A DNA stretch of 61,129 nt, counting the filler, from Catajapyx aquilonaris (taxonomy: Eukaryota), in the NCBI GenBank assembly GCA_000934665.2. It is 3 parts of 3 records of this genome, joined end to end, with 100 filler letters (N's around TTAATTAATTAA, not from the genome) between each part and the next. Parts side by side here need not be neighbours in the genome. Positions count along the whole stretch, not along the records: positions 40,828 to 61,129 come from JYFJ02006295.1; 2 more parts are not named here. One strand, 5' to 3'. This document shows positions 24,348 through 52,015 of this stretch, in pieces. Under the pieces are notes generated by a model. That model was not told the origin of the DNA, did not search any database, and worked only from the letters and a program-made list of their open reading frames with translations. Each line of letters begins with the position of its first letter. Positions within the stretch are counted from its first letter, which is position 1. A program made the translations under genes and the position numbers.

Positions 24348-26873
24348 TTAATAACCATAAAAAGAAAGAACTCTGGATAGCGATGACGACCGATTTAAGT
24401 CCATTGTCTCTTGGTCGACACCGTAACTGCTATCTCCCTGAAGGGGTGCTTTCTCACGTTCAGGCGAGGAAGTCTCACTCTCCGTCACTGTATACCGAGG
24501 TTTAGGTTTGTCTGGGATCACTGTAACTTTACCAGGCGGGCGTCCTCGAGGGCGTCGAATGGGCCCGATGGAATCTGGGACGAGTGGCTTCTTCTTGAAG
24601 TAAAACTGCCTCGGAGGTATGGCGGCTGGTAGGACAGGCGTCCTTGTCGAGGTACTGGGTTGTGCAGCAGGCTGCGGTGGCTTGGTTGTCTCTACGGTAC
24701 CTCGTGAGGGACCGGCTTTGCTGACTGGTCCGACAGGTTTCGTCATCAGTTGAGGGCGTGTCTTGGGGGCTGCGACCAGGAAGCGTTTGGCGATCTGGAC
24801 GGCGCGTTGGTTCACCGGCTGTTTTGGTTGGTGTGCCGGGAGATCTGCTTTTGGAGTGGCAATGTCTTCGGCTTCCGGTGTCTCTTGCTCAGGCTCGCTC
24901 TCCGTTGGTGTGGTCGGCGTACGGGCAGTCGGTGAGGCTGCTGGTGCATCTTCAGGCGTCTCTTCAGGTGTGGGAAGAAGGGCGTCTGCGACCGGCGAGG
25001 CTGGCGTGGTGGTTGGTTGCGATGCGTCCTCGTCATCGTCATCGTCAATAATAAGAACTCTCCTCGGTGGCGTATGCACATCTCCAGGATCGAATTCAAG
25101 ATCGGAGATGTTGGAGGAGGAAGAGGATAATGCTCTCGAAGGAGCTGTCGATGTTGATGCAGGAAGGGGAGCCATCCTTGGAGGAAAAAGCATAGTTGGG
25201 TTGATGGGTTTAGGTTGCGGAGGAGGCGGTTTCGGTGGAGCAGCAGGCTGCGATGTAAAATCACCGAAAGCCGGTTTCAGTCGGTTGAAGTGGACTGTCT
25301 CCGTTTTCCCATTCAGGTCCCTGATTTCGTAAGTGGTCTCGCCGATACGGCGGAGTACCTGAAACGGGCCTGACCAGGGTTTCTGTAGCTTCTTATGTAC
25401 CCCCTTCTTTAACCAGACCCACGAACCTTCTGGGTAAGGCTTCCCATGTATCCGCTTATCATATTGGGATTTCTGCTTGGCCCGTGCTGCATTCAGTTTG
25501 CGGCGGGCGTTGTTGAATAAAGTCTGGAAGTCGTTCGACATGCGCTTGACATGAGCGGAAGTTGTTTCAGCTTCGCCCAAACGTCCCAACACTAAAAGAT
25601 CTTCTGGGAGCTTGGCGTCACGGCCAAAGACCATTTTGAAAGGGGTCATGCCCGTGGAAGAATGAGAGTTGTTCCGGTACGCGAATAGAGTGTACGGGAG
25701 ACATTCGTCCCAATCGGTAGGGCGTTGTGCGACTTGGGCCTTCAACAATTGGACTAGAGTGCCGTTAAGGCGCTCCACCATTCCGTTGCCTTGCGGGTGG
25801 TATGCGGTTGTTCGCACTTTCCCGAAGGAAAAGATCTTGCCAATTTCATGAAACACTTCGCTGTCGAACTGTGTGCCCCTGTCGGAGAGTAAACACGAAG
25901 GGATACCATACCGACAGATGTGTTCCTTTACAAGGGCTTGTGCCACAGTTATTGCGTCGATCTGGGGGAGAGGATATGCCTCCGCCCATTTAGTAAAGAA
26001 ATCGACGATTACCAAGATGTACCGATTTCCAGATGCAGTGATGGGAAGAGGTCCGACTAAGTCGATACCCAACATCTGCATTGGATTGCCCACTTCAATA
26101 GGTTGTAAAGGGGCTCTGAATTTCGTTCCAGGAGACTTTGTCTCCTGGCAAACAAGACATTCTTTACACCAGCTCATGATGTCTGTTCTTATCCCGGGCC
26201 AGTAAACTCGGTCCTTGATAAGGTTGTAGGTTTTCTCGTAGCCATAGTGGCCACCCGTTAAAGAATCGTGATACATTTCGAATATCGTTTTTCCCCGAGA
26301 CGGGGGTATCACTACCTCATTATCGGTAACACCTTTTCGACGAAAGACCAAATCACCGTCTACTACAAGGTATTTAGTGTCTTTCGTCCATACAGACGAT
26401 GCTGGGAGAGGAAGACCGAAACGCAAGTGACGTCGGACTTCCTGAAGGTCTGTGTCTTGAGATTGCCAGCTGGAGGCGAGGGGGTAATCACTTATGGATG
26501 AGAAAACCACCTCGGTGTCTGGTTGTGGATAGCGGGATAATGCATCCACGTGTGATAGGAGCTTTCCCGGCGTGTATATGATGTGAGGAGCGTACTCTTC
26601 CATCAAAAGGATCCATCGAGCGAATTTGCCCGATGGGTTCTTCATAGCCCGCAACCACTTCAGCGGGTTATGGTCTGTTACAATCGCACACCGTTGGCCG
26701 TAGATGTATGGCCTGAAAGTTTTAAGAGCTTGGATCATACCCAAAGCCTCTCTCTCTATCACTGAATAGTTTCTCTCTGCAGGAGAGAGTAATTTACTCG
26801 AGTATACTAGAACGCGTTCTTTCCCGTCCTGTACTTGGGAGAGAATGTTCCCGATTCCTATGCCACTGGCATC
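24348..26873 (-). CDS. pol: Truncated pol frame: RNase H + integrase (HHCC, DDE core, GPY/F) + Pro/Thr/Glu-rich tail of about 300 aa
   Basis: DASGIGIG, ERNYSVIEREAL, TDHNPL; HDSLTGGH..CLVC; GIDLVGP, SDRGTQF, GMVERLN; WSGPFQV..VHFNRLKP; no stop codons. Confidence 0.92.
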   Translation of the reverse strand, partial: DASGIGIGNILSQVQDGKERVLVYSSKLLSPAERNYSVIEREALGMIQALKTFRPYIYGQRCAIVTDHNPLKWLRAMKNPSGKFARWILLMEEYAPHIIYTPGKLLSHVDALSRYPQPDTEVVFSSISDYPLASSWQSQDTDLQEVRRHLRFGLPLPASSVWTKDTKYLVVDGDLVFRRKGVTDNEVVIPPSRGKTIFEMYHDSLTGGHYGYEKTYNLIKDRVYWPGIRTDIMSWCKECLVCQETKSPGTKFRAPLQPIEVGNPMQMLGIDLVGPLPITASGNRYILVIVDFFTKWAEAYPLPQIDAITVAQALVKEHICRYGIPSCLLSDRGTQFDSEVFHEIGKIFSFGKVRTTAYHPQGNGMVERLNGTLVQLLKAQVAQRPTDWDECLPYTLFAYRNNSHSSTGMTPFKMVFGRDAKLPEDLLVLGRLGEAETTSAHVKRMSNDFQTLFNNARRKLNAARAKQKSQYDKRIHGKPYPEGSWVWLKKGVHKKLQKPWSGPFQVLRRIGETTYEIRDLNGKTETVHFNRLKPAFGDFTSQPAAPPKPPPPQPKPINPTMLFPPRMAPLPASTSTAPSRALSSSSSNISDLEFDPGDVHTPPRRVLIIDDDDDEDASQPTTTPASPVADALLPTPEETPEDAPAASPTARTPTTPTESEPEQETPEAEDIATPKADLPAHQPKQPVNQRAVQIAKRFLVAAPKTRPQLMTKPVGPVSKAGPSRGTVETTKPPQPAAQPSTSTRTPVLPAAIPPRQFYFKKKPLVPDSIGPIRRPRGRPPGKVTVIPDKPKPRYTVTESETSSPEREKAPLQGDSSYGVDQETMDLNRSSSLSRVLSFYGY

Positions 26874-26888
26874 CCACTTCTGACACCA
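26871..26888 (-). promoter_or_regulatory. Primer-binding site TGGTGTCAGAAGTGGGAT (tRNA-Leu type)
   Basis: 18-mer beginning TGG, 8 nt inside the 5' LTR; matches my recollection of a tRNA-Leu 3' end. Confidence 0.8.
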
Positions 26889-26896
26889 CGTTTATA

Positions 26897-29223: not shown

Positions 29224-30807
29224 TCACTTTCCTCCGTTGTGCTTATTTCTAACATGCTGTTTCAAATCTCCTGACCGACTAAACATTTTCCTGCAAATCT
29301 GGCAACTGAATGGCTTCTCCCCTGTGTGGGTCCTCATGTGTGTATTCAAACTCATTGAATGACTAAACTTTCTCTTGCAAATTGAGCAACTGAATGGCTT
29401 CTCCCCTGTGTGGGTCCTCATGTGGATATTCAAAGTTCCTGACTCTCTAAACTTTCTCTCACAAACCTGACACTTGAATGGCTTCTCCCCTGTGTGAGTC
29501 CTCATATGCCCATTCAAATGTCCTGACATACGAAACTTTCTCTTGCAAATCTGACAACTGTAAGGCTTCTCACCTGTGTGAATTTTCATATGTGTTCTTA
29601 AAGTAGACGAGTGTCTAAATTTTCGATTGCAAATTACACAACTGAATGGCTTCTCCCCTGTGTGAACACTCATGTGCCTATTCAAATGTTCTGACCGGTT
29701 AAACTTTTTGTTGCAAACCAGGCAGCTGAATGGCTTCTCCCCTGTATGGGTCCTCATGTGGACATTCAAACTTCCTGACTGACTAAACTTTCTCTCGCAA
29801 ACCTTGCAACTGAAAGGCTTCTCCCCTGTGTGGGTCCTCATGTGTAAATTCAAATGTCCTGACGCACTGAACTTTTTCTTGCAAATCTGACAACTATAAG
29901 GCTTCTCCCCCGTGTGGGTCCTCATGTGTAAATTCAAATTTCCTGACCGACTAAACATTTTCTTGCAAATTGAGCAACTGAATGGCTTCTCCCCTGTGTG
30001 GGTCCTCATGTGGTTATTCAAATGTCCTGGCCAGTTAAACTTTTTGTTGCAAACCAGGCAGCTGAATGGTTTCTCCCCTGTGTGAATCCTCATATGGATA
30101 CTCAAATTTCTTGACTGAGCAAACTTTCTCTTGCAAATCTGACAACTGAATGGCTTCTCACCTGTGTGCCTCCTCATATGCATTCTTATGAGAAGTGCGC
30201 TTCTAAATTTCATTTTGCAAACCTGGCAACAGAATGGCTTCTCTCCAGTGTGCAATCTCATATGTGATTTCAAATCTCCTGACTGAGTAAACCTTTTATT
30301 GCAAACTCTGCAATTGAATGGCTGCTCTCCTGTGTGAAGCATCATATGGAATTTCAAATACGACTGTCTATACTTTTTCTTACAAATCAAGCAACTGTAT
30401 TGCTTCTCTCCTGTGTGAACTATCATATGACTATTCAACCGTCCTGAACCACTAAACCTTTTCATGCAAACCTGGCAACTGAATGGCTTCTCCCCTGTGT
30501 GAACCCTCATGTGGATATTCAAATTGCATGACACACTGAACTTTCTCTCACACACCTTGCAACTGAATGGCCTTTCCCCTGTGTGGGTTCTCATGTGTGT
30601 ATTCAAACTTCCTGACTGACTAAACCTTTTCTCGCAAATCTGACAACTGTAAGGCTTCTCTCCTGTGTGCGTTCTCAGGTGAGTTTGCAATCGACGCCAG
30701 GAACTGAACTTCTTCTTGCAGATCTGACACTTGTTCCCTTTCAAGTGTATCCCTCTGCCCATGTTTTTCTGGGTCCCATTCTTCATATTCTCTTGATGAC
30801 ATTTTCC
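29224..30807 (-). CDS. C2H2 zinc-finger gene, last exon (18 tandem fingers)
   Basis: CxxC..H..H repeats with TGEKP-type linkers; acceptor tttcccatttcag|GGA in phase 0 at 30807; stop TGA. Confidence 0.95.
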   Translation of the reverse strand, partial: GKCHQENMKNGTQKNMGRGIHLKGNKCQICKKKFSSWRRLQTHLRTHTGEKPYSCQICEKRFSQSGSLNTHMRTHTGERPFSCKVCERKFSVSCNLNIHMRVHTGEKPFSCQVCMKRFSGSGRLNSHMIVHTGEKQYSCLICKKKYRQSYLKFHMMLHTGEQPFNCRVCNKRFTQSGDLKSHMRLHTGEKPFCCQVCKMKFRSALLIRMHMRRHTGEKPFSCQICKRKFAQSRNLSIHMRIHTGEKPFSCLVCNKKFNWPGHLNNHMRTHTGEKPFSCSICKKMFSRSGNLNLHMRTHTGEKPYSCQICKKKFSASGHLNLHMRTHTGEKPFSCKVCERKFSQSGSLNVHMRTHTGEKPFSCLVCNKKFNRSEHLNRHMSVHTGEKPFSCVICNRKFRHSSTLRTHMKIHTGEKPYSCQICKRKFRMSGHLNGHMRTHTGEKPFKCQVCERKFRESGTLNIHMRTHTGEKPFSCSICKRKFSHSMSLNTHMRTHTGEKPFSCQICRKMFSRSGDLKQHVRNKHNGGK

Positions 30808-30959
30808 CTGAAATGGGAAAGCATGAGCTCATGAAATTCATGAAATAAATGCAGATGAAGGGTGAATGTATAGACATGGTTTTATGACCATGCAAGATAA
30901 TTCCTGTGGCATTACATGTGCAATGGGCCAACTTTTCCTTCCATTCCCACTAATCTTAA

Positions 30960-41258: not shown

Positions 41259-42707
41259 AGACTGAGACGAGCAGAAATCAAGACTCAGGCCTGCACTTTG
41301 AAGGCGAGGCTGGCCAAAAGGCAGAAGTGTCAGACCAAGCTGGAACTTCCAAAGACTATGAACCTGGACTGGGAGATTAATAGAGTAGATGTAAATACAG
41401 GAGTGACTATATGAAGCTTTCTTTCTCAACTTTAAATGCAGTTTTCTCAAAACTAAATTTTTGTGCCATTGCATTGTCGTAGCATAGCGCATGAACCGCC
41501 CCAATGCTAGTAATAAAAACATCCGTCACCATAACAACAGAAACACTCAATTTGTCGTAGAGTGCTGCTGAAAAATACTGCTGCGTCCATGTCAGTTGCT
41601 GTATTTCTTTAGCCACACCAGTTACTGTCTGTCGAGTGTTGAAAACGTTTTACTTTGCAAGGGTCAGGTGGTTTCAGGCAGGCACTCCTCACCAGCATGA
41701 AGTGTGGCGCAGTTCATGTGAAAAATTAACGGCAGAGGAGTCGATCGTTCCTATATGTAGAATATATGGGAAGTTTTTTTGTGGTGTCATGAGAGATAAT
41801 AGTTCCTTTCACGTGTGCTCTATGCCAAGAAAGGGTTCTCAGTAATGAAGGAGGGGGGAAAAAATCTTAACCTTTCCTGCACAAGATGACCTGAAATGTA
41901 GTAGCCTATGATCAGAGTGACAGTTAACTGATTTTGAATACGAAGGTTTGAAGTTTAAACATAATCCTTTACAAAGTATACATATGAAGACATCCACAAA
42001 AACAATTAAAAAAAAAAAAAGACCAGTCATAACAAAATGGTAGGCCTAGCTGCTGCACTGTAATAAGCGTTATATATTTCATATCAGTTTATTTAATATT
42101 TTCAAACCGTTGGTAGCGAAACCGCGGAACGGAGGATACATTACCCGTGTATTTAAAAATCAACTTCATGCGGTCTGGGACAAAGATAAAATGGTTGAAA
42201 ATGATGTTGAATTTCTCGTGACTGGAGATCTAATAATGTAGGCTTAATTCACTTTTTTTTTTTACATATAGGCCTACAGCAGATGCATAAGTACGACTGT
42301 TACTGGAGCGAGTACAAAACTCCAGCTGGAGACGAGGGACAGACTTCACCTGGATGAACTGGAGAAGAAGAAGAAGAAAGGAAGTCCAGGCTGGAGGAAG
42401 AGGATTGTTGGAACGAGATAGTTCTCGTTCCATTTCTAAGGGGGGAAGAATGTAGTGTCCAGGCAACTGGCAGCACTACAATACTATTTTTATGCCACCA
42501 TTATTTATTGTTGCAGCTGTTTTGTGATTTTTTTTAAATAATGAGAGACATTGCTTCTATCTAGTAGTACCATCCAGAAGAGCAGAGATATAACTGAGGA
42601 TGGTATGTATCCACGACTCATCTGCTCATGAGCTGTTCCACCACTTTCCTCGAACATGTGATTAGAAAATTTCCCAAAATACAAACTGTATTGTTGCAAA
42701 AATAATA

Positions 42708-45439
42708 AGGTACCTGACCCAAATAAGGCCCAGCTCCCAATAAGGCCCAGTTTTTATATCTCTGTTAATTGCGGTCGTAACTCCAGATGGCATGCATGGG
42801 TCGATTAAGCATCAAAAAGTGAGTATAGTTCGGTAGATGGCACTATCGTGCAGGACACATAGGCCCATGAATTTAGCAAGTCATTGTCGACAGGCTAGAA
42901 AAACAGGCGCGTTGTAATTTTCCTGCTGAGAAAAGCCTGGATACAAGACGAGTGAGACGTGCTACGCCTACGTAATGGTACGTACAGACACCTGAGCGAC
43001 AGCGCTTAGCTATCGTAGTGGCACAGAGGATTAAAACAGTTCCCTTTAGGTAATTCAGGTCATTTGCTGAAAGGCTACTGCGATCCTAATAAGGCCCAGT
43101 CAACAACGTGGTGGGCCTTATTAGGTACAACGGCACATACAGCCATCCTAGAGCCGGAATAGTGACACAGTAGGTAATGTAATCCCTGTAAGAACTTTAT
43201 CATGGCTAGAACATGTGTGAGGAACAACTCTGTATTTCATTAGGGAAGGAATGGCCACTGCAAACACACATCCGCAGAAGCAACGCCGTGCGCAATGGAC
43301 AGAAGAAAATTTGCAGAACGCCTTGAATGCGATTCGGCGTGGGAAACTAAGCCAACGAGAGGCGCAGGCACGTTTTGGAATCCCTAGGAGGACACTCAGA
43401 AACCATATAAAGAGTGGCAAAGAATCACGGAAGCTAGGTCGAAGCCCACTGTTGTCATTCGAACAGGAAGAGGATTTGAAAGCACGCCTTTTTCGACTCT
43501 CTGAAATTGGAGTTCCTCTTACGAAAAAGTTGCTGCAGCATTCAGTGCACCGATACTGCCAATTAAACGGGATAGCACACACCTTCAATCTCGAAACATG
43601 GTGTGCAGGGAAAAAATGGATGAAACTTTTCATGAACAGGCATCCGGACGTGGTAGTCAGGAAAGCTCAGATGATGAATCAGGCGCGAGCCCAGAAATTG
43701 AATCGTCCCATTGTCAATGACTACTTTCAAAAACTGAAGCAAACTTTAGAAGACATGCAAGTGACAACCAGACCCGAAAAAATCTTCAATATGGACGAGA
43801 AAGGCTGTCGATTGACTCTCCACCATCAGCAAAATGTGTTGTCACGCAAGGGAGCGAAGCGGGTTCATCTCATTGCAAACGAACACGCTGAGAATGTCAC
43901 GATCGTAGCTTGCGGAAGCGCGGTAGGCACAGTTATCCCGCCAATGGTGATATTCAAAGGCATCCGAATGAAACCTGAGTATGAGGACAACTTGCCGCCA
44001 GGCTCAGCTGTGGCTATGGCCCCGAAAGGGTCGATGACTACTGATATTTTCCTGGTGTGGTTGGATCATCTCGCAAGGTTCAAACCCGCTGGTCCAATCC
44101 TTCTCATCTTCGATGGTGTTTCGAGTCATCTGGACTACGACATTGTAGAACGAGCAGAACAACATGAGATAAAATTATTCTGCTTGCCAAGTAATACGAC
44201 CCATGAATTACAGCCCATGGACAAGAGTGTCTTCAAAGCTTTCGAGAGCTACTGGGACGAGGCGGTTCTGAGATTCTGGGACACACATCCGGATCGAATG
44301 CTAACCAAGACCAGATTTGGCACCATATTTACCCGAGTCTGGGGCAAGGCGCTTACATCTGAAAAAGTGATCAGTGGCTTCCGTGCAACTGGCATCTACC
44401 CTTTTGACCCCTCAGTTATTCCCGATGAAGCTTTCGCACCCAGCGTGCTCACGCAGACTGACGAACATCACCTTGCTGAGGAACGAGCAGGTAGCCCAGC
44501 AATCAGCCATGCATCTGTCGATGTGGATAGTCCTGAAAATGAAGTCCCACAGGATGAAGCTGATATGACCTCAGTGATACCTGAATCAGCAGACAATGCC
44601 ATCCTTGATTCACCGGATCATGGCTCCCAGCAAAATATGTCCAATGTTCCAGCACCACAGAGTGATGATCCACACAATGCGGGCGAGAAGGAGTCCCCCA
44701 CATTCCACGATTTGTTGTCGACCCCAAAGTTGCAGCGATCAAAGAAAAGGGCGAGGAAATCCCTCAATTATAAAGCACAAGCTCTCTGTAAGTCCTTGTT
44801 CAGTGGTAAGAAGGACAGGAAGTTAACTCAGCCAAGGGCCCGAAGTTCAGGAAAGAAAGGAAAAGCTGCATCCTCTGCAAGTAAGTTACATTCAATTTAA
44901 ACTAACTTAGGACAAAGAAACACGAATTTCACTTAGATTACATGTTACACCATTTGTAGGCACACGAAACTCCCGCTCTCAGGCCCGAGGCAAACCGGAC
45001 AGGCGGACGCTCACCGATGCCGGACAAGCAAGTTGGCATTGCTCCGTATGCCATGAGGATGCTATGAGGGACATGCGGAGGTGCTTTTCTTGCCTAACCT
45101 GGGTCCATGAAGACTGCGTGGGTCTTACAGTAGAAGATAAGGGGCAGTTTCTGTGTCCAGATTGTGCACCGTAACAAGTATAGCTGTATAGGACTTGCAA
45201 TGGTGGCGGACTTACGTGGGCCTTATTTGGGACCTATGGTTTTAATAAGGCCCATGTGTAACACTTTACTAAGCAGGTTGTCAGCCGAAGGATATGAATT
45301 CCAGCATACACGGATATATATTGACTTGTGCATTATTATATGATGTATCTGTCCATGCATTCAAATAAATGCTCAACGTTCACTGGGACTGGTAAAAAAT
45401 TGTTATCTGTTAGGTGGGCCTTATTTGGTGCAGGTACCT
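42708..45439 (+). mobile_element. Complete pogo-superfamily DNA transposon (2732 bp)
   Basis: TA TSD; TIRs AGGTACCTGACCCAAATAAGGCCCA / TGGGCCTTATTTGGTGCAGGTACCT; intact transposase. Confidence 0.93.
43251..45174 (+). CDS. pogo-type transposase, 614 aa spliced (exons 43251-44880 and 44960-45174): psq/CENP-B-type HTHs, DDE_1 DD35D core, C-terminal PHD finger
   Basis: NMDEKG, IFDGVSSH, QPMD with 35 aa between the 2nd and 3rd Asp; 79-nt gtaagt...tttgtag intron in phase 1; exon 2 has CSVC..CFSC..H..C..CPDC. Confidence 0.9.
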
Positions 45440-46265
45440 TATTACAAAAACCATTCTAATAATGAGCAGTGGATAATCTGGCCCGGCTACTTAAACCTGT
45501 GGGGTGGTCTGGCACCTTTGGACCTGGAATGACATTCATTATTACTGTTTGTACGTAAACCTTCGATTTCACGGAAAATAAATTATTGGGAACTATAGAT
45601 CTTATTAGTGCCTCATCATTATTTACTTTTTTATGTATTTATCCTTCATGCCTTTTCCTTCCAGCAAAAAAATGCAATGGATTTATCTCACGTAATCGGT
45701 AATGGTTTATCAACATGATATGAACTTACTTTTCTAAGTTACACTGGTGCAATAAATTGTGACTTTTTCAGAGCATCTGAGATTAAACTACGTTGCATTA
45801 ATCATGTTTGGGCAGCTGAATATGAAAATGGCCGTTGAAACACCAGATTAGCTCAGGTTCTTTTAATATGGATAGGATTTTTTTTACACATTTGCATAAG
45901 TTACCGGTATGTATGTATGTAGGACCTACCCTGTGATAAAACTGGCGAGCACAGTTTTTCATTAGAATACTTTCATGCTCTGTCTAATGTAACTATTAAT
46001 GCTGATTTCAAATATGCAATCAGAAATTTTATGTCCGCAAGGCTACGTTGCTGGCACTCTTTCACCAAAAGAGTCAGAGTGCGGAATTCGCATGATAATT
46101 GCTGGATATTTAAAAAAAGAAATAGTAACTGCGGGAAGGGGCATAACCAGCCCTCTCCATTTCGTCTCCTCAGCCCCTGAATCTATATGTCTCCTCACAC
46201 CTTAATCCACCACGGATAAAGGGGGGGCAGGTTATGCTGGAAGCAGGACGAGGCCGCCCCTGGCC

Positions 46266-51064: not shown

Positions 51065-52015
51065 TGTTGCATAGTTATGTGCCGAGTTATGTTGCATAGT
51101 GATGGAATGTCAATAAAGGACTCTTTGACTAGACGCATTAAAAACGGTTGTACTTTTCCTTTGCTCTCCATTTCCCTGTCCTCCTACGTTCGGCAGGGAT
51201 CATAACAATTGGCGACGAGGCGGAGAAGACACCTACGTGTTCCAGCACACTACGCTGTATGGAAGTCTTGCTACTGGAATCCGTCCCGCAGTCTCCCCTG
51301 AGTGCGAAATCCATTGCCGCACTTACCACAAAGGACCAAACTTTGAATAAAGTTCTGCGCTACTGTCTCCCGGGATGGCCTACAAGCAAACCTGATGACT
51401 TGGAGCTGCTACCGTACTGGACAAGGTCATCTGAATTGTCTGTTCACAATGGGTGCATGCTATGGGGTACTCGCGTTGTCATCCCTGCTCAAGCCAGGAA
51501 GGACACATTAACGTTACTTCATGTGGGACACCCGGGCATAAGCCACATGAAGGCGTTAGCACATAGCTATCTGTGGTGTCCTCTACTCGACAAAGAGGTG
51601 GAACAGTTCGTTCGCCTCTGTGACAAGTGCCAATCTACACGGCACTTGCTACCAAAAGTCCCAGTACATCCTTGGGAGTACCCCAAGAAACCACGGTCCC
51701 GCTTACACATGGACTTCACAACGGGGCCACACAACGCCCAAAGGCAGATCCAGAGCTCACAGATGGGAGCCCCGTGTCTGCACCGCGGCTGAAGCGACGA
51801 CCGAAGAGGGCCCGGCAGCTTCCCACAGCTTTGGAAGACTACGTACCATAAGTTCGTTTCTACTGGGGGAGGAGTTGCATAGTTATGTGCAGAGTTATGT
51901 TGCATAGTGATTGAATGTCAATAAAGGACTCTTTGACTAGCTGTATTAAGAACGGTTGTACTTTTCCTTTGCTCTCCATTTCCCTGTCCTCCTACGTTCG
52001 GCGGGGATCATAACA
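51065..52015 (+). mobile_element. Miniature deleted Gypsy (Mag-like) LTR element, 951 bp
   Basis: 143-bp LTRs 51065-51207 and 51873-52015; 5-bp TSD ATTCG; PBS TGGCGACGAGG; PPT GGGGGAGG; integrase HHCC remnant LHVGHPG..CDKC. Confidence 0.92.

Follow-up and report, generated by a model that had tools for sequence, protein, structure and literature searches.

A predicted two-exon pogo transposase gene in Catajapyx aquilonaris with a conserved C-terminal PHD finger close to those of TAF3 and the ING proteins

We describe an element of ~2.74 kb at positions 42705-45442 of a 61,129-nt stretch of DNA (the window, filler included) from Catajapyx aquilonaris, in the part that comes from record JYFJ02006295.1 of GenBank assembly GCA_000934665.2. 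In our reading, to which we give a probability of about 0.6, the locus is one full-length copy of a cut-and-paste DNA transposon of the pogo superfamily with a transposase gene of two exons. Exon 1 would supply helix-turn-helix (HTH) DNA binding, DD35D catalysis and a basic linker, and exon 2 would add a C-terminal PHD finger recognising histone H3 trimethylated at Lys4 (H3K4me3). The most probable role of this finger would be to keep the transposase on open, H3K4-methylated chromatin, or to license it there, while integration takes place. The hallmarks of the pogo superfamily are present, namely a DDE_1 domain with its D,D,D triad, an N-terminal HTH and inverted ends flanked by TA. Taken on its own, the proposal that the gene consists of two exons and carries an ancestral PHD finger is highly probable.

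On the + strand, an open reading frame (ORF) of 549 codons runs from ATG to stop over 43251..44900. Exon 1 would take up 43251..44880 of the same strand, i.e. 543 codons plus one base, and encode HTH_psq, DDE_1 and the basic linker, the last of which includes the conserved motif LNYKAQ..LF. Pfam recognises DDE_1 (E 1.1e-17) and HTH_psq (E 2.7e-12; residues 17-59 of the exon-1 protein) in the 549-aa ORF. A match to HTH_Tnp_Tc5 is weak (E 0.015) and under Pfam's cut-off, and BrkDBD is absent among the eight Pfam families found at E<=1. The catalytic aspartates D182 (NMDEKG, 43794..43796), D288 (LLIFDG, 44112..44114) and D324 (LQPMDK, 44220..44222), all encoded on the + strand, each occupy an invariant alignment column, and the latter two are spaced by 35 residues, i.e. 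DD35D. Among 8,000 database candidates scored, 385 are related to the ORF at E<=0.001. The best 120 of these are 44-61% identical to it, and those that bear names are proteins of beetles, moths, butterflies, one ant, one stick insect and one tunicate. Of the 120 columns that are conserved in 90% or more of these 120 homologues, 116 have the conserved residue in the window copy. The transposase looks intact and is possibly competent; an earlier reading of this DNA from sequence alone (the sequence-only reading) had called it an intact pogo DD35D transposase, and HTH_psq, DDE_1, the three aspartates and their spacing bear this out.

Beyond the catalytic core the coding sequence appears to be interrupted. 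The predicted intron (44881..44959, + strand) is 79 nt long and in phase 1; it opens with GTAAGT after CAA and closes with CCATTTGTAG before GC. Exon 2 (44960..45174, + strand) would contribute two bases, 70 codons and a TAA stop at 45172-45174, for a predicted spliced product of 614 aa. The pair at 44881-44959 has the best splice signals, a GTAAGT donor and a pyrimidine-rich TAG acceptor, and the GC fraction is 0.29 in the 79-nt segment as compared with 0.48 and 0.56 in the adjoining exons. These features suggest that the segment is spliced out, and they agree with the canonical 79-nt intron of the sequence-only reading, from the GTAAGT at 44881 to the TAG ending at 44959, whose removal joins the two frames. 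Its account of the unspliced form was likewise correct: when the intron is retained, a TAA at 44898-44900, six codons into the intron, yields a 549-aa protein ending at 44900 that lacks the PHD finger and keeps all three catalytic aspartates. Four sets of DNA contigs were placed on positions 42600-45550, and no joint over 44881-44959 was found in any of them.

Decay by a single frameshift was considered as the origin of the two frames and rejected. The stop at 44898 closes the ORF frame before the finger frame becomes open at 44911, so that one frameshift cannot link them. A second GTAAGT at 44788, preceded by TCT, could serve as an alternative donor; used with the same acceptor at 44959, it keeps the frame and removes 31 further codons of the linker. 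One DNA contig of single depth over 44367-45254 differs from the window at 5 letters and by 24 gap letters; either an allelic in-frame indel of the linker or a change within the intron may be behind this.

The peptide encoded by exon 2 contains a complete C4HC3 finger. It reads SWHCSVC-x10-CFSC-x4-H-x2-C-x12-CPDCAP, and the finger spans W25 to C68 (45034..45165, + strand) according to Pfam, AlphaFold2 and the homologue alignment. The zinc ligands would be C27, C30, C41, C44, H49, C52, C65 and C68. Pfam scores the PHD family PF00628 at 27.3 bits on exon 2, with a curated cut-off of 24, and the AlphaFold2 model has a mean predicted local distance difference test (pLDDT) score of 78 and of ~90 across the finger. 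The sequence-only reading had rightly described a complete C4-H-C3 finger, with one spacing given as x8 that is in fact x10. It had also placed the finger within the terminal inverted repeats, and exon 2 does lie inside the inverted ends at 42703-42735 and 45412-45444.

This finger is widely conserved. When the 70-aa exon was compared with 1.84 billion representative sequences by phmmer, 240 matched at E<=0.001, 34 of them at E<=1e-10, which argues that the finger is not a product of chance. A word-index search of longer proteins with that exon gave no match. Among 150 listed finger matches, 36 longer proteins were scanned for domains: DDE_1 was found in 13, HTH_psq in 8 and FLYWCH in 1, the remainder being domain-free fragments, and no other transposase family turned up in these 36. 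The strict C4HC3 pattern is present in 80 of the best 120 homologues of the ORF, or in 95 if the last pair is allowed to be C-x2-3-C. The 23 homologues without a finger are mostly short (399-555 aa) and end shortly past the core. In 85 of the 95 pattern-matching homologues the finger ends at most 4 residues from the C-terminus. When the exon-2 peptide was aligned with 83 finger-bearing homologues, the columns invariant in the latter (C27, C30, M38, C41, C44, H49, C52 and C68) were all kept in the window copy, as were the nearly invariant W25, R39, G54, D59 and C65. We conclude that a large clade of animal pogo transposases shares this finger as an ancestral and conserved C-terminal tail. The sequence-only reading had instead proposed that the PHD finger was gained by splicing. 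The data do not support this, since a recognisable core of the same finger is found in 97 of the 120 top homologues, at a median of 2 residues from the C-terminus, and some relatives encode it without any intron.

These relatives come from a scan of metagenome contigs that returned 80 loci. One frame encodes both core and finger in the intronless genes of L003, L011 and L012, and in L003 and L011 it contains no stop between the two. In six others (L001, L006, L008, L009, L010 and L015), which are 46-60% identical to the window copy over residues 4-401, the frame shifts just past residue ~401. Where the finger is seen among them (L001, L009, L010 and L015), it shares the second frame with the LNYKAQ region. 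In L001, a GTATGT preceded by AAG at 1822 and TTTCGTGTAG at 1978 restore one ORF, and L014 has an equivalent frame-restoring GT-AG pair after the core. The intron of the window copy sits elsewhere, in the variable basic linker between the LNYKAQ motif and the finger. Because the finger lies in one frame in some relatives and the intron is placed elsewhere in others, the finger would be ancestral and the 79-nt intron lineage-specific. The clade would then hold three types of gene: some lack an intron, others have one after the core, and the gene in the window has it shortly before the finger.

Five loci of the same scan (L023, L035, L040, L041 and L079) have a different and longer C-terminal finger (CSVCG...QDWIQCN.C.GW.HE.C...DDDY.TCA.C). 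Either its frame is not that of the core, or stops lie between the two. Identity of the core to the window copy is 30-31% for L035, L040, L041 and L079, and 65% for L023 on its best matching segment. PHD-like tails may reach beyond the clade studied here.

Both sequence and predicted fold place the finger closest to the H3K4me3 readers of the TAF3/ING type. When the PDB was searched with the exon-2 sequence, ING4 came out best (E 5.1e-5), followed by ING1, ING3, ING5, ING2, TAF3 and CFP1; with a profile of the family, the best solved structure was TAF3 (E 2.9e-6), followed by PHO23, ASH1L, png2, YNG2, BPTF and ING1. The top Foldseek rows for the model are the fingers of TAF3, ING1/2/4/5, AL1/AL3 and BPTF, mostly solved with H3K4me3 peptides. 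Identity to the TAF3 and ING fingers is only 31-40%. In the alignment with TAF3, whose numbering was taken from spacing in the printed chain, W25, D33, M38 and W47 fall on W868, D877, M882 and W891, the residues that form the K4me3 cage in the passages of PMC12238850 on TAF3. Across the 83 homologues these positions hold W in 82, D or E in 60, M in 83 and W or Y in 82. D59 aligns with TAF3 E905, given in the same passages as one of two contacts to arginine 2 (R2) of the histone tail, and is D in 77 of the 83 homologues. The finger is also acidic, with a net charge of -4 in the window copy and a negative charge in 74 of the 83 homologues, and would thus be better suited to a histone tail, which is basic, than to DNA.

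We consider the chance that the finger reads H3K4me3 to be somewhat short of even. Guidance of the transposase by chromatin, as put forward in the sequence-only reading, or its tethering there is plausible, because the finger is closest to solved structures of H3K4me3 readers and retains, at the level of sequence, the cage positions. Binding of this kind would bias integration.

At the boundaries of the element, arms of 33 nt at 42703-42735 and 45412-45444, 91% complementary and with TA as their outermost bases, form an inverted pair, within which the terminal inverted repeats proper occupy 42705..42735 (left, + strand) and 45412..45442 (right, - strand). The TA dinucleotides at 42703..42704 and 45443..45444 are the putative target-site duplication. 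Loose contig ends start at 42705 and 42710 on the left and lie at 45437 and 45443 on the right, which confirms the boundaries. The 10-mer ATAAGGCCCA occurs in 7 exact copies in the 61-kb window, every one within the two ends of the element, with 0.16 copies expected and none of 100 shuffles reaching 7. On the left (42723..43121) the copies start at 42723, 42740 and 43089 on the + strand and at 43112 on the - strand; on the right (45217..45424) they start at 45217 (-), 45245 (+) and 45415 (-). They are candidate binding sites for the transposase. The motif also takes part in two short palindromic pairs, one per element half (43085-43125 and 45214-45257), with 14-nt arms 13-16 nt apart, which may be paired binding sites. 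A possible polyadenylation signal (AATAAA, 45364..45369, + strand) lies within the element.

Relatives of the element within the genome can be gauged from the same four contig sets by summed contig depth, which is not equal to copy number. This depth is 23-40 in the flanks, ~600-1,700 at the element ends and 22-35 over 44481-44876: the ends are repeated in the genome and the distal part of the coding sequence is not. Contig joints from 43124 to 43718, from 43837 to 45032 and from 43119 to 44939 correspond to internally deleted, non-coding derivatives. Within the window, blastn and tblastn find the element in a single copy.

Several observations weigh against our reading of the locus. The listed pieces of deleted derivatives are only ~90-95% like the window copy, and no second full-length copy was seen. 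No contig of the four sets joins 42704 to 45443 as an empty site would, and the 33-nt inverted ends contain three mismatches. The transposase deviates at four strongly conserved columns (I80L, A290V, E338A and N372K). The ORF and finger frames could formally be joined by any of 50 GT..AG pairs, so that a frame-restoring pair is by itself no evidence for an intron. As for the finger, no Foldseek E-value reaches 1e-3, the best being 1.3e-3; TM-scores normalised to target length range over 0.5-0.77. The R2 pocket is incomplete: L45 stands at TAF3 D889, an R2-binding acid that is not conserved, and F42 and T46 stand at ING3 Asp-23 and Glu-30, both R2-binding acids according to passages of PMC5000080; across the family these positions are mostly K, T, R or S. 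Finally, at the position of H26, 51 of the 83 homologues have Y, 23 have F and 6 have M, and H occurs in none of them. Judged by alignment ranges, H26 matches the cage residue Tyr-8 of ING3, whose change to Ala weakened binding ~50-fold in that same source.

The finger could, in principle, work on something other than a histone. As a part of the transpososome, it might bind end DNA or some further partner that is not a histone. The precedent is the C-terminal cross-brace finger of piggyBac, which binds specific repeats in the ends and is essential for transposition (PMC5861402). The seven copies of ATAAGGCCCA in the ends offer possible sites for such an activity, and the loss of the ING3 R2-pocket acids and of TAF3 D889 would be in line with it. 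A net acidic finger is nonetheless a poor fit for DNA. No piggyBac chain appears among the 60 of 79 sequence matches, the 50 profile matches and the Foldseek rows listed, all of which are dominated by histone readers, and binding to the ends is already explained by the N-terminal HTH_psq/Tc5 motifs of pogo transposases (PMC7386202). We regard this alternative as unlikely. We see it as quite unlikely that exon 2 is a relic, in which case the 79 nt would never be removed, the 549-aa protein without a PHD finger would be the sole product and the finger frame would be open only because the copy is young. The wealth of GT..AG pairs and the unique deviation at H26 would suit a relic, and ~70 open codons are not improbable by themselves. 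Against this stand the retention of all eight zinc ligands and of every invariant or nearly invariant residue, position 26 excepted, the GTAAGT donor and pyrimidine-rich TAG acceptor with the sharp dip in GC to 0.29, and two frames that one frameshift cannot bridge. In addition, the GT-AG introns that relatives carry elsewhere between core and finger indicate that split genes are normal in the clade.

Two further alternatives were considered. Retention and splicing might, in line with the sequence-only reading, act as a regulated switch that produces transposases with and without the PHD finger in different tissues; the P element, in which the third intron is retained, provides a parallel. The stop six codons into the intron leaves the catalytic core whole. 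In a second lineage, a different intron lies between the core and the part with linker and finger, and an unspliced reading there fits gene calls of 399-424 aa in databases, which stop shortly past the core. The intronless L003, L011 and L012 mean, on the other side, that a switch is no requirement of the family, and the two intron positions are perhaps two chance gains; we hold a regulated switch to be very unlikely. The other possibility is that the locus is an immobile host gene domesticated from a pogo transposase, for which one could invoke the intron and the distal coding part (44481-44876), whose contig depth is that of the flanks. The inverted ends, the TA, the subterminal repeats and the many deleted derivatives that share those ends are at odds with domestication, as is the intact catalytic triad, and its probability is close to negligible. 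Our preferred reading remains that of a full-length pogo transposon whose two-exon gene ends in a histone-reading finger.

PHD-tailed proteins of this kind are already present in databases. Examples are NQ314_010378 of Rhamnusium bicolor, which bears the automatic name 'PHD-type domain-containing protein', LOC143470554 of Clavelina lepadiformis and HW555_003619 of Spodoptera exigua. Like the window protein, to which they are 45-61% identical over the core, they combine HTH_psq, DDE_1 and a C-terminal C4HC3 finger, and they have in common with it the finger motif SW[YF]C..C..D...DMR.C..C..[WY].HE.C.GL...D...F.CP.C. The window copy differs from its PHD-tailed relatives in the H before the first Cys, where others have Y, F or M, and in the 79-nt linker intron. 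Gao et al. 2020 (PMC7386202) ascribe DD35D to both Passer and Fot/Fot-like elements, and the DD35D pogo families described there resemble the window element in their DD35D signature, TA flanks, short inverted ends and DDE_1. In the same paper and in PMC9976928, Passer has BrkDBD with HTH_Tnp_Tc5 or HTH_Tnp_Tc5 alone and a transposase of 400-500 aa, while Fot/Fot-like elements are given HTH_psq with HTH_Tnp_Tc5 (PMC7386202). The window element shares DD35D with Passer and differs in having HTH_psq and a product of 549 or 614 aa; judged by DD35D and the HTH features alone, it fits the Fot/Fot-like pattern. The word 'PHD' has no occurrence in the text of PMC7386202, PMC9976928 (Passer) and PMC7325037 (Dupeyron et al. 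2020). A keyword search of the literature, which covered titles and abstract openings and had subscription journals and Repbase reports outside its scope, found no account of a PHD finger on pogo transposases.

The TAF3 and ING1-5 fingers, the best matches in sequence, profile and fold, belong to chromatin factors, whereas the window finger sits on a transposase and partly lacks the acids of the R2 pocket. A parallel in architecture is offered by the C-terminal domains of piggyBac and of the ciliate Tpb2p, which are also PHD-like cross-brace fingers at the C-terminus of cut-and-paste transposases. The cysteine-rich finger of piggyBac binds transposon-end DNA (PMC5861402) and that of Tpb2p binds H3K9me3/K27me3 tails (PMC3861120). 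Both proteins are of another superfamily, and no similarity to the window finger appears among the matches listed. The PHD finger of RAG2 reads H3K4me3 and couples cutting by a transposase-derived recombinase to active chromatin. RAG differs from the window element in that its finger is on a separate subunit and in being unrelated to pogo. Some retrotransposon integrases carry chromodomains.

The window, which contains 178 N and has a G+C content of 43.9%, includes other sequences of mobile and, probably, host origin. On the - strand, 24351-26891 is open for 847 codons with RT_RNaseH, Integrase_H2C2, rve and Integrase_p58_C, and by these domains is the 3' part of the pol of a Ty3/gypsy-like retrotransposon. 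A 534-codon open frame at 29227-30828 (- strand) consists almost entirely of C2H2 zinc fingers (at least 14 repeats by Pfam) and probably represents one exon of a zinc-finger gene of the host. At 51142-51789 (+ strand), 216 open codons with Integrase_H2C2 belong to another retroelement fragment.

The prevailing view is that most Tc1/mariner and pogo transposases select their TA targets largely irrespective of chromatin. A built-in and conserved reader of a histone mark would, if true, provide a simple mechanism for insertion bias, parallel to the PHD finger of RAG2 and to the chromodomains of retrotransposon integrases. More tentatively, and with less confidence than for H3K4me3 reading as such, we propose that the pogo transposases of a whole animal-wide clade have, as a conserved C-terminal tail, an H3K4me3 reader of their own of the TAF3/ING type, which would steer these elements to active promoters or license them there. 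Introns between the catalytic core and the finger would, in some lineages, let host splicing choose between a targeted and an untargeted enzyme. A module of this type may be of use in engineering pogo vectors such as Passer. Taken alone, the window copy is a modest addition, one more representative of a family whose PHD domain is already annotated in databases. The interest lies at the level of the family, where a TAF3/ING-like module, undescribed in the pogo surveys PMC7386202, PMC9976928 and PMC7325037, forms the tail of many animal pogo transposases.

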